A stretch of DNA of 64,000 nucleotides from Candidatus Paceibacter sp. (GTDB lineage Bacteria > Patescibacteriota > Patescibacteriia > Magasanikbacterales > UBA922). Positions 60,651-64,000 of the stretch are shown here, piece after piece. The notes beneath the pieces were generated by a model. The model did not search any database. It was given only the letters and a program-made list of their open reading frames with translations, and was not told the origin of the DNA. The first letter of the stretch is position 1. Each line of letters opens with the position of its first letter. Made by a program: the position numbers and the translations under genes. The stretch spans positions 20,015-84,014 of the forward strand of contig DYFM01000004.1 of assembly GCA_020725175.1 (NCBI GenBank), written 5' to 3'.

Positions 60651-60765
60651 ATAAAAGCAAAACAAAACAGACACACATGAAAAAGATACTCAAAGGATAA
60701 ACCCCACGTCGAAATTCATGATAAAATTCATCTCAAAACCGTCGTTTCGCAGGCGGTTTTGTATT

Positions 60766-60794
60766 TTGACAACACCCAATTTCAAAGGTATACT
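60766..60794 (+). promoter_or_regulatory. consensus sigma70-type promoter TTGACA-17 nt-TATACT
   Basis: -35 TTGACA 60766-60771, 17-nt spacer, -10 TATACT 60789-60794; precedes PAS-sigma gene. Confidence 0.6.
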
Positions 60795-60842: not shown

Positions 60843-61913
60843 ATGTTCAACAATTTCTCTGGCACCATCATCATTACCGACCCAAACGCGGTGATTCTCT
60901 ATGCCAATCCGTCGGTAGAAGAACGGACCGGTTTTTCGGTTGCGCAAGCAGTAGGAAAACGACCGGGAGAATTGTGGGGTGGACACATGCTGCGAGAGTT
61001 TTATGATCGGATGTGGCAGACGATACGTGAGGAAAAACGCCCGTTTGTTGGTGAAGTAAAAAATAAGCGCACAGACGGTACGTTTCGGCGTATGGGGCTC
61101 CATATCGCACCGATTATCAATCGTCGAAATGAGGCAGAATACTATATCGCTATTCATCCGGCAGTGACAACTGACGTGGAAGAACGACAATTTCAACAGG
61201 AGTTTGCTGAGGTATTTGCACCATGGCATGTTTCTACTTCTTCGGAAACAATTGCTTGGTTGGCGCGTTGGACCAAAGGCGAAGCCAAATTGACGCTTGA
61301 CGAAGGAGGTGTACTCCACAAAACACATCTGGTTGATATGGTCTCCTTTTTTCGTACGGAACTCATCAACCCGATTGCCGAAAAGTTTCAAGAGCGAAAG
61401 GCTGATGCAGAATTGGTACGATTGGCACAAGAAAAACCAAGCAAGTTCCATTTGTTATATGAAAAGTATCAGGCATCAGTTGAACAGTATTTTTTGCGCC
61501 GGTTAGGAGGGGATGTTATGTTGGCGGAAGAGTGTACACAAGAAACGTTTATTCGTGCGTTTCGATTTTTACCGCAGTATCATATTACCAATGCTTCGTA
61601 CCAAACTTACCTTATGCGTATTGCTCACAATTTACTAGTAAGTCATTATCGCAAACAAGCTCCACTGTCTCTTGAAGAGCAAGAAGGAACATTGGTCAGC
61701 GAAGATAATTATGAGGGTATTTTTGACCAAGAAGAATTGCGACAATTATTAGAAACTGTTTCGGATGTTGAACGAGATATCTTAACGATGAAATACATTG
61801 ATGAATTATCTATTCGTGACATTGCCGTAACCCTCGGAAAAACAGAAAATGCCGTGAAACTTATGTTGTCGAGAACAAGGAAAAAATTGAGAAATAGGGA
61901 AATAACGAAATAG
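60843..61913 (+). CDS. PAS-domain fused to sigma-70/ECF-type sigma factor (sigma2 + sigma4 regions)
   Basis: N-terminal PAS fold 'IIITDPNAVILYANPSVEERTGFSVAQAVGKRPGELWGG'; sigma region 2 'YFLRRLGGDVMLAEECTQETFIRAFRFL'; sigma region 4 HTH 'ILTMKYIDELSIRDIAVTLGKTENAVKLMLSRTRKKL'; start set at Met 60843 downstream of promoter (track start 60759 overlaps promoter). Confidence 0.75.
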   Translation: MFNNFSGTIIITDPNAVILYANPSVEERTGFSVAQAVGKRPGELWGGHMLREFYDRMWQTIREEKRPFVGEVKNKRTDGTFRRMGLHIAPIINRRNEAEYYIAIHPAVTTDVEERQFQQEFAEVFAPWHVSTSSETIAWLARWTKGEAKLTLDEGGVLHKTHLVDMVSFFRTELINPIAEKFQERKADAELVRLAQEKPSKFHLLYEKYQASVEQYFLRRLGGDVMLAEECTQETFIRAFRFLPQYHITNASYQTYLMRIAHNLLVSHYRKQAPLSLEEQEGTLVSEDNYEGIFDQEELRQLLETVSDVERDILTMKYIDELSIRDIAVTLGKTENAVKLMLSRTRKKLRNREITK

Positions 61914-62215
61914 GGAAATAACGAAATGTGTTTCCCTCTATCAGGGGGACGCAAGGGGGTCGTTCAGAGGTAGAGTGTTTGGAACTTGGATAGTGCTTTT
62001 ATGTTAGCCCTTTGCTAGCTAACTAAGGAATAACAGACGACCCAAGGGGAGTGTGTTGGAATGTACAATACACACTAAATAATAACTTTAAACACAAAGA
62101 GAGAAAATAAATTGTCAAAAACAGTAGATCTGAACAGCTATGGTTGATTGAAATAGGTGAAAAATGTGATTTCTTAATCAGTAAAATAGCAAACGCCAGA
62201 TTTTCCCAAAAACAA

Positions 62216-62256
62216 AAAACCGTATCTGCAAGAACCAGTACGGTTTTTTTATTTCC
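62216..62256. terminator. bidirectional rho-independent terminator (A6-CCGTATCTG..CAGTACGG-T7)
   Basis: 8-bp stem with one bulge flanked by A and T tracts. Confidence 0.65.
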
Positions 62257-62317
62257 ACGTTTCGCCCTTCGGTAGGCTCAGGGCTCATCAGTCCCGATCA
62301 TCAATCGGAAGACGTGG
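62255..62317 (-). ncRNA. type III hammerhead self-cleaving ribozyme
   Basis: minus-strand RNA 5'-CCACGUC^UUCCGAUUGAUGAUCGGGA-CUGAUGA-GCCCUGAGCCUACCGAAGGGC-GAAA-CGUGG-3': open helix III (6 bp), closed helix I (7 bp, loop UGAUG), core CUGAUGA, closed helix II (5 bp, 11-nt loop), GAAA, GUC cleavage triplet; all invariant core positions present. Confidence 0.8.
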
Positions 62318-62350
62318 TCCCCGGCGCGAGCGCTGGGGAGCACGCCGGGG

Positions 62351-62485
62351 CTAACGCATCAGGTGTCCGATGCATGAGCCCACCCCTCCCGCCACCGCCA
62401 GAGCAAACAGCTGCTCTGGCGTGTGGCCCAGGAACAGGCCCATGGCGGCGCAGGTCAGCGCCGCCACGATGTAGGACTCCGTCAT
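62351..62485 (-). CDS. GC-rich (about 66% GC) 44-aa hydrophobic two-helix peptide (MTESYIVAALTCAAMGLFLGHTPEQLFALAVAGGVGSCIGHLMR)
   Basis: strong GC3 bias (ACG GAG TCC TAC ATC GTG GCG GCG CTG ACC TGC GCC GCC ATG GGC CTG...) in a 38% GC genome; small-residue Gly/Ala zipper-like helices; followed by 8-bp GC hairpin, hammerhead and terminator; frame differs from track ORF 62301..62501. Confidence 0.45.
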   Translation of the reverse strand: MTESYIVAALTCAAMGLFLGHTPEQLFALAVAGGVGSCIGHLMR

Positions 62486-62813
62486 AAAAAAACCCCATCA
62501 AACACCTGCACCACGCAGATGTGAGGGGTCCTCCTACAAAAAAACTACCAGAGAGAGAGAGTTAAAAGTCAATAATAAATCGCTCTACAACCACCTTGTT
62601 CCTTGCCACTTACCTCTGACACCTTTTCCCTATTTCTGCGTTTATTAATATAGAGTACCCGCCCTGGGCGGAAAAAGTAAAACAACAAAACAATAAAACA
62701 ATAAAGCAATTTAGCAATGTGACAATATAACAATCAAACATTTTATACATTAGTTCAATTCAATGAGCCTTCGAAGCCTTGTAAGCTTCGGGGACCTCGT
62801 AAGCCTTTCAACT

Positions 62814-64000
62814 ATGCCTATCTACAAAATTCAAAAACGTAACGGCACTATCGTCAACTTTGAATTGAGTAAAATTGAACATGCGGTGCGGCAAGCAGCG
62901 AAGTCGGTCAATCAATTGGACGAGGGAATCCCTCCTACGGTAGCCAAGGAGGTGTTGGTTCAACTTGAAGATTTGTATCAAGACACAATTCCAACCGTAG
63001 AACAAGTGCAGGATGTGGTGGAGGAAGCATTGATCAAATTTGATTACGCGGAAATTGCCAAGGCATATATTTTGTATCGTCAAAAACGTAATGAAGTCCG
63101 TGAAGAAAAAAGTGTGGTGGTAGAAGTGGGAAAAACCATTGATGAATATCTTGGGCACCTAGATTGGCGCATTAACGAAAATGCAAATATTGGGTATTCT
63201 ATCGGGGGGTTGATTTTAAAAAATTCCGAAAAAATTGTCGCCAACTATTGGTTGAGTCACATTTATCCAAAGGCTGTAGGTGAAGCGCACCGAAACGGGG
63301 ATTACCACATTCATGATCTCGGTATGTTTACCGGGTACTGTGCCGGTTGGAGTCTGCGGGCACTTCTTGAAGAAGGATTCAATGGTGTGCAAGATAAAGT
63401 AGAGTCCGGCCCACCAAAGCATTTGAGTTCGGCCGTGGCACAAATGGTAAATTTTCTGGGTACCCTCCAAAATGAATGGGCAGGCGCACAAGCATTCTCC
63501 AGTTTTGACACGTATTTGGCACCCTATGTAAAAAAATACGAAATGGAACTTGAGCAAGAAATCGACGAACACGGGATGCAGTTTTTAACAGAAGAAGCGA
63601 AGCAGTTGTATATTGACGAAAAGACGTATCAGTATGTGTTTCAAAATATGCAGTCGTTTGTGTTCAACTTAAATATTCCATCTCGCTGGGGAACACAAAC
63701 ACCATTTACCAATATTACGCTTGACTTGCAATGTCCGGAAGATTTGAAAGATAAACGGTTGTTGCTTGGAGGAAAACCATTTGAGTTTACGTATGATCAA
63801 TTGCAAAAAGAAATGAACATGATCAACCGGGCGTATATTGAAGTGATGAGCCAAGGTGATTCCAAAGGACGTACGTTTACTTTTCCTAGTCCGACGTACG
63901 ACATTACCAAAGATTTTGATTGGGATAATCCAGCCTATGAGCCATTATTTGAAATGACGGCCAAATACGGTACCCCATACTTTCAAAATTTTGTGAACTC
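62814..64000 (+). CDS. nrdD: anaerobic ribonucleoside-triphosphate reductase (class III RNR), N-terminal part; runs off window
   Basis: N-terminal ATP-cone 'MPIYKIQKRNGTIVNFELSKIEHAVRQAAK', downstream class III RNR core ('FTFPSPTY'); no stop within window. Confidence 0.85.
   Translation, partial: MPIYKIQKRNGTIVNFELSKIEHAVRQAAKSVNQLDEGIPPTVAKEVLVQLEDLYQDTIPTVEQVQDVVEEALIKFDYAEIAKAYILYRQKRNEVREEKSVVVEVGKTIDEYLGHLDWRINENANIGYSIGGLILKNSEKIVANYWLSHIYPKAVGEAHRNGDYHIHDLGMFTGYCAGWSLRALLEEGFNGVQDKVESGPPKHLSSAVAQMVNFLGTLQNEWAGAQAFSSFDTYLAPYVKKYEMELEQEIDEHGMQFLTEEAKQLYIDEKTYQYVFQNMQSFVFNLNIPSRWGTQTPFTNITLDLQCPEDLKDKRLLLGGKPFEFTYDQLQKEMNMINRAYIEVMSQGDSKGRTFTFPSPTYDITKDFDWDNPAYEPLFEMTAKYGTPYFQNFVN

Follow-up and report, generated by a model that had tools for sequence, protein, structure and literature searches.

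In a 64,000-nucleotide stretch of DNA from Candidatus Paceibacter sp. (contig DYFM01000004.1, positions 20,015 to 84,014; hereafter the window), we have analysed a gene at 60843..61913 on the forward strand whose product carries a PAS sensor domain at its N-terminus and the two core domains of an extracytoplasmic function (ECF) sigma factor behind it. The same three-domain protein recurs among the ultra-small Patescibacteria, also called the candidate phyla radiation (CPR), where its gene usually lies close to nrdD, which encodes the class III anaerobic ribonucleotide reductase, and to nrdG, which encodes the activase of that enzyme, with a conserved promoter-like motif ahead of nrdD. ECF sigma factors make up the third major mode of signalling in bacteria, and we propose that this one is a one-component, flavin-based regulator that answers to redox state or oxygen and serves nrdDG. 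Taken as a whole chain, from sensor through to target, we would put this account only a little above an even bet; two of its links, the service of the nrdDG promoter and the gating by the PAS domain, stand firmer, and the flavin-mediated signal stands slightly lower.

A single stop-free frame runs on the forward strand from 60759 (TTG) or 60843 (ATG) to 61913, its translation contains the peptide IITDPNAVILYANPSVEERTGFSVAQAVGKRPGELWGG that was quoted in a preliminary description of this DNA, and the same undivided open reading frame (ORF) is seen on two independent contigs. Read from the ATG, the product has 356 amino acids before its stop codon, and the PAS, region 2 and region 4 that the preliminary description had assigned to it in a minimal, ECF-like layout are all recovered above their Pfam thresholds. 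The N-terminal region is indeed PAS (amino acids 1-104, E 2e-12, 47.5 bits against a cutoff of 22.6), followed by Sigma70_r2 (PF04542; amino acids 205-273, 47.8 bits against 24) and Sigma70_r4_2 (PF08281; amino acids 297-349, 50.1 bits against 25.7), and region 4 also matches PF04545 (29.1 bits against 24.1). Sigma70_r3 gave no Pfam match in the 356-residue product at E values up to 1, the gap between regions 2 and 4 is a disordered linker of 24 amino acids, and the NCBIfam model TIGR02937 (sigma70-ECF) is passed at 75.2 bits against a cutoff of 42.9. To count as an ECF sigma factor by operational criteria, a protein should lack region 3 and have no more than 50 amino acids between sigma2 and sigma4 (Casas-Pastor 2021). 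Because regions 2 and 4 exceed threshold, region 3 is missing, the linker has 24 residues and TIGR02937 is passed, the protein can be classed from its sequence as an ECF (group 4) sigma factor. All NCBIfam subfamily models remain far below their cutoffs, the nearest being the BldN family (83 against 206) and SigM (70 against 148).

In window coordinates, all on the forward strand, the PAS domain, which is of NifL-PAS1/LOV (light-oxygen-voltage)-like type, occupies 60843..61160 (amino acids 1-106, including the motif GKxPGxLWGGxM, W58, N74 and H105), the linker from PAS to sigma2 61161..61388 (amino acids 107-182), sigma region 2 61389..61661 (amino acids 183-273, the Pfam match to Sigma70_r2 covering 205-273) and sigma region 4 61728..61910 (amino acids 296-356), with a recognition helix, ENAVKL.LSR.R, that hardly varies across the family. 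The JGI gene call (P0001, 384 amino acids) starts at the TTG at 60759, which sits inside a hairpin and T-run and 5' of the -35 hexamer of the gene's promoter, and can be ruled out as a start codon for these reasons. Because this TTG precedes the -35 element, and no other canonical start codon lies between the predicted transcript start and 60843, the ATG at 60843 is likely to be the start of the coding sequence, and the 28 extra N-terminal residues of P0001 are probably not translated.

The protein is far from a singleton. A word-indexed search returned 173 relatives, more than 100 of which cover 95-99% of the query at 33-45% identity with the same order of PAS, region 2 and region 4, and an exhaustive profile search gave about 115 full-length representatives at 50% identity clustering. 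Every informatively named member belongs to the Patescibacteria/CPR, with Magasanik-, Morani-, Nomura-, Pacei-, Peri-, Uhr- and Gracilibacteria represented, and the NrdD of the window is closest to that of a Magasanikbacteria metagenome-assembled genome (MAG; 76% identity). In the family alignment the invariant PAS positions are T12, G30, W45, G46, M49, Y54, W58 and N74, the helix that follows the PAS domain is conserved with the pattern FxxEF, and the DNA-reading helices are nearly invariant, both in sigma2 (NASYxTYLLRIAHNLL) and in sigma4 (ENAVKLxLSRxRKKL). Partial relatives also exist, namely a PAS-only paralogue of 268 amino acids (locus L004, 3461-4267), which is 43% identical over the PAS domain and the first helix, and PAS-less sigma relatives of 181-226 amino acids (L128, 1230-1910; L129, 272-817; L126, 1057-1695).

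The conserved partner of the sigma gene lies downstream of it. In the window itself we find the 5' part of nrdD (62814..64000, forward strand; ATP-cone and NRDD domains), which the end of the window cuts, and on the source contig five genes come after the sigma gene: nrdD, a 61-amino-acid ORF, a DHO_dh gene, a 67-amino-acid ORF that matches the extreme C-terminus of NRDD, and nrdG. At three of four further loci that we inspected, nrdD-nrdG likewise adjoins the sigma gene. We then scanned one genome per GTDB species, which returned 181 relatives, and 80 loci were kept. Among the 77 of these species-level loci that were informative, 70 have nrdD-nrdG within 8 kb of the sigma gene. Counted over all 80, nrdD is on the same strand and less than 400 bp downstream in 59, at 0.4-1.5 kb in 4 and beyond 1.5 kb in 6, and lies upstream on the other strand in 1; it is absent from 7 loci where sequence was available and from 3 where the contig is truncated. 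When every ORF between -5 and +8 kb in the 80 loci was clustered all against all, the only broadly conserved neighbours were NrdD (60 loci), NrdG (55) and a small NrdD C-terminal ORF (39), the next commonest clusters being clade-specific and found in at most 17 loci. The preliminary description had set the gene between a giant surface protein and a hammerhead cassette, a placement that misses the relevant context, which is the downstream nrdD-nrdG pair together with its promoter.

NrdD is itself unusual in these genomes. In most of the loci L005-L086, and in the continuation of the window contig (L001, 12058-16740), it is split into a protein of about 700 amino acids with ATP-cone and NRDD domains and a separate ORF of 50-70 amino acids that matches the last ~32 positions of Pfam NRDD and that we take to be the glycyl-radical C-terminus of NrdD. 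The pieces are fused in L003 and L033 (761 amino acids), the lineage of the window has the DHO_dh gene and the 61-amino-acid ORF between them, and the split can be likened to the GrcA/YfiD-like 'spare part' arrangement.

The short spacers between sigma gene and nrdD share a nearly invariant element, in which TGACACCTTTT is followed by a T-rich stretch and, after it, by G(T/C)GTTTA(A/T). In the window this predicted target promoter of the PAS-sigma factor spans 62617..62644 on the forward strand, with TGACACCTTTT as a -35-like element, N11 and GCGTTTA as a -10-like element; it is the sole copy in the 64 kb and begins 197 nt before the ATG of nrdD. The motif is present in 69 of 72 sigma-nrdD spacers, and 62 keep the fixed spacing CACC-N15-[CT]GTTT. 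With TGACACCTTTT alone as the anchor, the two strands of 2.2 Mb of flanking DNA yield 71 occurrences, 67 of them carrying [CT]GTTT 10-12 nt downstream, and there is about one copy of the motif per ~15-kb locus. The motif tracks nrdD and not the 3' end of the sigma gene: in L003 and L033 it stands on the minus strand directly upstream of nrdD, and in L043 and L045, where nrdD is 5 kb from the sigma gene, it is found ~240 nt ahead of nrdD. It also accompanies the PAS-less sigma relatives upstream of nrdD (L128 and L129). For example, PAS-less P0228 (226 amino acids) has a pair of tRNA genes on one side and nrdD on the other, and its stop codon is followed by the motif; the motif also follows PAS-less P0224. 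Several TPA_asm records (L007, L010, L012, L013 and others) that bear the names 'uncultured Bdellovibrionales' or 'Gammaproteobacteria' share the sigma-motif-nrdD locus, and because it is the same locus as in Patescibacteria MAGs, the taxonomic labels of those MAGs look unreliable.

Is the conserved unit DNA or RNA? In 39 of the 80 loci an arm reading GGTGTC precedes the motif, forming a terminator-like hairpin (GGTGTC-loop-GACACC-T(n)) of which the -35 element is the 3' arm. The motif is intact where the upstream arm is missing, and a C for T at the -10 position disrupts a possible ACACC/GGTGT pairing and is uncompensated; because the motif survives without the arm and the C variants go uncompensated, its pattern of conservation points to DNA rather than to an RNA hairpin. 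The same variants rule out an RNA switch in which ACACC would pair with GGTGT. An NrdR box, which is ACAC-N8-GTGT, can be ruled out too, as this palindrome is lacking. Promoters of ECF sigma factors are said to follow the rule AAC-N16/17-CGT, and the layout seen here, CAC-N16-(C/T)GT, in which a T-tract comes behind the -35 element, fits it; to read the motif as a housekeeping promoter (aTGACA / TTTAAT) would require a 19-nt spacer. We think it quite probable that this sigma factor serves the nrdDG promoter, and it is a general property of ECF groups that conservation of the protein is accompanied by conserved target promoters and co-encoded target genes (Casas-Pastor 2021).

Extra copies of the motif occur before a lone 2-hydroxyacid dehydrogenase gene in L004, before a 2-hydroxyacid dehydrogenase, a thiamine-pyrophosphate (TPP) enzyme and a GFO/IDH/MocA oxidoreductase that stand ahead of nrdD (L064, L067 and L077), before a multicopper-oxidase-like membrane protein in L007, and before the small NrdD C-terminal ORF in L054 and L058, so that the sites taken together look like a small redox or anaerobic regulon centred on nrdDG. 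A motif-first scan of JGI metagenome contigs gave 39 matches, only 5 of which are sigma-nrdD loci, and was uninformative on further regulon members; the remaining matches lie in unrelated sequence, several within coding regions, and the chance expectation was not calculated.

The window differs from most of its relatives in what separates the sigma gene from this promoter. The spacer (61914-62616) is ~700 bp long, against ~20-75 bp in 72 of the 80 loci, and because it is so short in most relatives the whole segment, including its hammerhead-like and GC-rich parts, is by comparison a lineage-specific insertion. It holds a type III hammerhead-like match on the minus strand (62254-62318; 34.4 bits, under the gathering score of 48.5, E 7e-5) and a GC-rich island (62225-62525; up to 69% GC against ~40% around it), within which a hydrophobic ORF of 44 amino acids (62351-62485, minus strand) has no Pfam match. 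A 16-nt tandem duplication (61884-61915) spans the sigma stop codon. The 3' end of the sigma gene (61881-61926) is complementary to the spacer and -10 element of the nrdD promoter (62625-62646; 22 nt at 82%), with a perfect 12-nt core (GAAATAGGGAAA / TTTCCCTATTTC), and the arms flank the insertion; they may be the remnant of an ancestral terminator hairpin, or may be due to chance.

Turning to the expression of the sigma gene itself, a terminator-like hairpin and T-run (60734..60761, forward strand; a 10-bp stem with 5 GC pairs, then TATTTTG) probably ends the upstream transcription unit, and is followed at 60766..60794, on the same strand, by a promoter of housekeeping (sigma-70) type, TTGACA-17-TATACT. 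This is the near-consensus promoter noted in the preliminary description, and it agrees with the consensus at 11 of 12 positions and lies 48 nt 5' of the ATG. Both strands of the window contain 5 matches of at least 11/12, compared with 1.9 expected from shuffles; the match by itself is only suggestive, but its placement, after the hairpin and before the ATG, is right. In relatives, too, the sigma genes have housekeeping-type promoters, often with an extended -10 (TGnTATGAT) near the ATG, and the nrdD-type motif was not found upstream of the sigma genes of the family. From these two features it would follow that the sigma factor is not autoregulated.

A dedicated inhibitor is also missing from the picture. 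In agreement with the preliminary description, which had seen no anti-sigma factor encoded nearby, none is evident in the 64-kb window and none recurs among the clustered neighbours of the sigma gene in the 80 species-level loci. An upstream ORF of 61 amino acids has neither a Pfam match nor relatives in the other loci, and is ruled out as an anti-sigma factor: it is unconserved, contains no Cys or His and no transmembrane segment, and is cut off from the sigma gene by the terminator and the promoter. We infer that the sensor controls the sigma factor directly, without an anti-sigma factor, which fits because the fusion is conserved, the promoters of the sigma genes are of housekeeping type, and N-terminal extensions are rare and mechanistically unstudied. 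Only 4 loci, in Magasanik- and Nomurabacteria, have a canonical short ECF sigma gene (184-189 amino acids) divergently adjoining that of the PAS-sigma factor (for example L005, 3930-5899, and L006, 3650-5779); it is accompanied by a protein of 258-311 amino acids, possibly membrane-bound (with weak, sub-threshold Pfam matches only), and one of ~150 amino acids, and the three may form an ordinary sigma/anti-sigma pair.

As for what the PAS domain might sense, its nearest relatives all point in one direction. The best Foldseek match is the PAS1 domain of NifL with bound flavin adenine dinucleotide (FAD) (2gj3; 33% identity, TM score 0.78, root-mean-square deviation 2.5 A), behind which rank LOV domains and the FAD-PAS of Aer, with 8dik among the top matches. 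By phmmer the best solved relative is again NifL PAS1 (E 7e-12), and further down come MmoS (E 8e-8), short LOV proteins and EL222 (E 4e-6). Conservation of pocket residues was counted over 40 family members, and NifL W87 corresponds to W58 (40/40), NifL N102 to N74 (40/40) and NifL H133 to H105 (22/40, or 55%). In FAD-binding PAS domains, of which NifL, MmoS and Aer represent clusters 4, 9 and 14, the F-alpha Trp is the primary determinant of FAD binding and the Asn and His are secondary (Xing et al. 2023, PMC10468136). Judged by its relatives and these residues, the PAS domain likely binds flavin, and that the signal is flavin-mediated redox state or oxygen seems to us a proposition with as much for it as against it. 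Two more specific identities were tried and rejected. A LOV photoreceptor is ruled out by the motif GK(K/R)PGxLWG, with Pro at the position of the adduct-forming Cys of the LOV motif GxNCRFLQ and no conserved Cys in the PAS domain, and a heme PAS of the FixL/DOS type by an F-alpha helix with invariant Y54 and W58 and no conserved His.

The route from sensor to output can be sketched from a confident AlphaFold2 model built with the family alignment (pLDDT 87.4, pTM 0.68). It places the strands and helices of the PAS domain at residues 8-105, helices at 111-124 and 133-143, a low-confidence, flexible tether at ~144-165, a helix at 166-181 that enters sigma2 (183-272), a disordered linker at 274-290 and sigma4 at 296-355. 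Helix 111-124, with its FxxEF pattern (ERQFQQEFAEVF), can be aligned with KQRFKEDFISVLGHQLR, the junction at which Pfam HisKA starts, in four PAS-PAS-HisKA-HATPase kinases (P0186, P0209, P0238 and P0212) that came up in the profile search for the family and carry the same PAS subtype in tandem (GKNPGDLWGGxMP...W...N). The PAS subtype with PGxLWGGxM thus appears to be a general sensor module, and not one private to the sigma family. Because the post-PAS helix of the sigma factor aligns with the HisKA junction of same-subtype kinases, the alignment suggests that the fusion arose when a kinase core was replaced behind a shared sensor and signalling helix, and it likewise suggests that the signal leaves the PAS domain through the post-PAS helix. 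How sigma2 and sigma4 might be held inactive can be approached by analogy, the candidates being occlusion, as in EL222 or by region 1.1 of sigma70, and an inactive PAS dimer. Since both the fusion and the pocket residues are conserved, we are rather confident that the PAS domain gates the activity of the sigma factor.

Several points speak against the proposal of a flavin-based redox switch for nrdDG, and they have to be weighed together with its rivals. In NifL, residues S39, E70 and Y110 complete the hydrogen-bond network of the flavin and relay the redox signal (PMC12540587), and here all three are unconserved, the equivalent positions being I/L10, P41 (Pro in 35/40) and the variable position 82. 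Because this network is missing, the PAS domain of the family is best described, from sequence, as related to NifL PAS1 and not as its orthologue, and its pocket chemistry is regarded as distinct; the His of the FAD site, kept in just 55% of members, is another sign that the chemistry differs. The window protein in particular has Met84 (61092-61094), a site occupied by Glu or Asp in 37 of 40 relatives; the position is equivalent to N492 of LOV, next to the flavin ring, and the substitution could alter or disable sensing in the window lineage. In addition, the family has an invariant pocket motif of its own, GKxPGxLWGGxM, within which P41 (the position of NifL E70) falls, and its segment PGxLWGGxM (W45, G46, M49) is not found in NifL or LOV. 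With the flavin-N5 partner E70 replaced, as are S39 and Y110, with this private motif and a poorly kept His, and with PAS domains in general binding many ligands (PMC10468136), one could argue that the domain senses something other than flavin redox, perhaps a gas, by way of a different cofactor, or a small metabolite that reports, for instance, on the nucleotide pool or on fermentation, with the sigma factor and its nrdDG target unchanged. We hold this to be unlikely, though more plausible than any of the other alternatives, given that the nearest relatives in sequence and in structure are all flavin PAS domains, that the F-alpha Trp and Asn are invariant, and that there is neither a conserved F-alpha His for heme nor a conserved Cys.

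Other objections concern the target and the direction of control. The link between sigma factor and motif is one of co-occurrence, which differs from recognition, 7 loci with enough sequence have no nrdD near the sigma gene, the PAS-less relatives show that the sigma-nrdD link does without a PAS domain, and the direction of the switch (on when reduced) is taken solely from the oxygen sensitivity of NrdD. A housekeeping sigma factor may read aTGACA-19-TTTAAT, though the spacing is off. It might therefore be that the sigma gene keeps company with nrdD without controlling it directly, the sigma factor having other targets, and that the motif is read by the housekeeping sigma factor or another regulator, or serves mainly to terminate the sigma transcript. 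The likeness of aTGACA and TTTAAT to housekeeping hexamers, the terminator-like hairpin to which the -35 part contributes its 3' arm at 39 of the 80 loci, and the lack of the motif upstream of the sigma gene, when ECF sigma factors usually autoregulate, would all suit this explanation, yet we consider it quite improbable. The hexamers would be 19 nt apart and the invariant CC-TTTT extension is foreign to a housekeeping -35; the motif, far from preceding many genes, is seen about once in each 15-kb locus, stays with nrdD when that gene lies on the opposite strand or at a distance of 5 kb, and is intact without the 5' hairpin arm; the uncompensated T/C alternation at -10 speaks against an RNA element, and the NrdR box is not matched; and the DNA-reading helices of the sigma factor are as invariant as the motif. 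Still less probable, in our view, is that the N-terminal region is a cleaved pro-domain, or a module for dimerisation or stability, with control exerted when the sigma gene is transcribed. Among N-terminal ECF extensions the only one studied well, that of BldN (ECF121), is a cleaved pro-sequence, the BldN family also scores highest among the NCBIfam subfamilies, though far under its cutoff, the flexible and poorly conserved residues ~144-165 could be a cleavage site, and PAS-less variants exist; but pocket residues that are invariant across very divergent lineages imply a function in binding a ligand or cofactor, the same PAS subtype feeds histidine kinases and is thus a signalling input, and the sigma gene has a strong promoter of constitutive type. 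Finally, separate PAS-only (L004) and sigma-only (L128) relatives elsewhere might raise the suspicion that a sequencing or assembly frameshift has fused a PAS gene to an ECF gene. The preliminary description had treated the two parts as one polypeptide, and with one ORF on two independent contigs and more than 100 full-length homologues from many studies, which align in the same order along 95-99% of the query and share its three domains, a fused pair can be dismissed as virtually impossible.

On the proposal that we favour, a flavin-based redox switch for nrdDG, the chain of events would run as follows. The sigma gene would be transcribed from its own housekeeping-type promoter, probably constitutively and with no auto-amplification, and the N-terminal PAS domain, a member of the NifL/MmoS/Aer/LOV flavin lineage, would most likely hold FAD and report the redox or oxygen state of the cell. 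Through the signalling helix and linker it would keep sigma2 and sigma4 inactive in one state and free them in the other, the inhibition taking place by occlusion in cis or by PAS-mediated dimerisation, in place of a separate anti-sigma factor. The active sigma factor would guide RNA polymerase to TGACACCTTTT-N11-G(T/C)GTTTA before nrdD, the small glycyl-radical ORF and nrdG, and in some lineages the same promoter motif might also drive genes for fermentative oxidoreductases. The oxygen-sensitive class III ribonucleotide reductase would in this way be made only under reducing, anoxic conditions, and in about half of the loci the hairpin formed with the -35 element would terminate the sigma transcript and insulate nrdD from read-through.

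How does this compare with what is known? Reviews of ECF sigma factors agree with the preliminary description that fused sensory extensions are mostly C-terminal, N-terminal ones being rare and without mechanistic data, and neither these reviews nor the related literature describe a PAS extension or a link to nrdD. In the searchable literature we found no description of a PAS-ECF sigma factor, which is not proof of novelty, the architecture being visible in public domain databases. The groups with C-terminal extensions, ECF41, ECF42, ECF44/CorE and ECF56, are alike in having a sigma2-sigma4 core, no cognate anti-sigma factor and an extra domain on the chain that presumably sees to sensing and inhibition, and ECF121 (BldN), ECF36 (SigC) and the planctomycetal ECF87-89 also have N-terminal extensions, a minimal core and no neighbouring anti-sigma gene. 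By its layout the present family belongs with these sigma factors, which carry a regulatory extension in place of an anti-sigma factor. Unlike them, it has an N-terminal PAS sensor with a signalling helix, a predicted target promoter that lies downstream, before nrdDG, and no sign of autoregulation.

Beyond the ECF sigma factors, NifL PAS1 (together with MmoS and Aer) has in common with our family the Trp on F-alpha and the Asn, as well as the His that 55% of our members keep, and NifL too makes the expression of an oxygen-sensitive enzyme system depend on redox or oxygen status, as is predicted here. However, NifL is an anti-activator that acts on a sigma54 enhancer-binding protein through its PAS2 and kinase-like domains, whereas here the output would be a sigma factor on the same chain. 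EL222 and the LOV/PAS helix-turn-helix (HTH) regulators likewise have a flavin-type PAS domain joined by a helix to an HTH of the LuxR/sigma4 type, and in the EL222 model the PAS sheet cages the HTH until the signal comes; but EL222 is a light sensor with an adduct-forming Cys (Pro here) and a classical activator, not a subunit of RNA polymerase. In Escherichia coli, FNR induces nrdDG anaerobically, so that there too an oxygen or redox sensor turns on a class III ribonucleotide reductase operon under anoxia, although FNR is an Fe-S activator of the CRP family that works with sigma70, and in our case the sigma factor would itself do the sensing and have a promoter dedicated to it. The PAS domains of the four histidine kinases are 40-44% identical to that of our family, share PGxLWGGxM and continue into a post-PAS F-x-x-E/D-F; their output is a kinase core, and in the sigma family the helix runs instead into the linker and sigma2, with no phospho-acceptor His box. 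By analogy, the nearest functional counterpart would be the induction of nrdDG by FNR, and the nearest mechanistic ones NifL for redox sensing and EL222 for control of a sigma4-like HTH.

The CPR/Patescibacteria have tiny genomes with few regulators, and almost no regulation has been experimentally defined in them. A recognisable PAS sensor and a single obvious operon with a sharp promoter mean that the whole path from input to output is testable with one protein and one DNA fragment. If our proposal is true, such a compact, redox-controlled pair of sigma factor and promoter, maybe orthogonal, would be of interest to synthetic biology. We would go further only tentatively, and with more doubt than belief, in suggesting that the family is the main oxygen or redox switch of many CPR bacteria, in which a flavin-PAS sigma factor, derived from a PAS histidine kinase by a change of output behind the signalling helix, directly confines the making of the sole or anaerobic ribonucleotide reductase, and hence DNA replication, to anoxic and reducing conditions, through a dedicated promoter whose -35 element also serves to terminate the sigma transcript. 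On that reading no earlier sigma factor would have had a PAS redox sensor built in, and these uncultured organisms would have their first defined pair of regulator and target. If the account holds, a conserved triad of regulator, promoter and target for the synthesis of deoxynucleoside triphosphates would show how CPR bacteria cope with oxygen.

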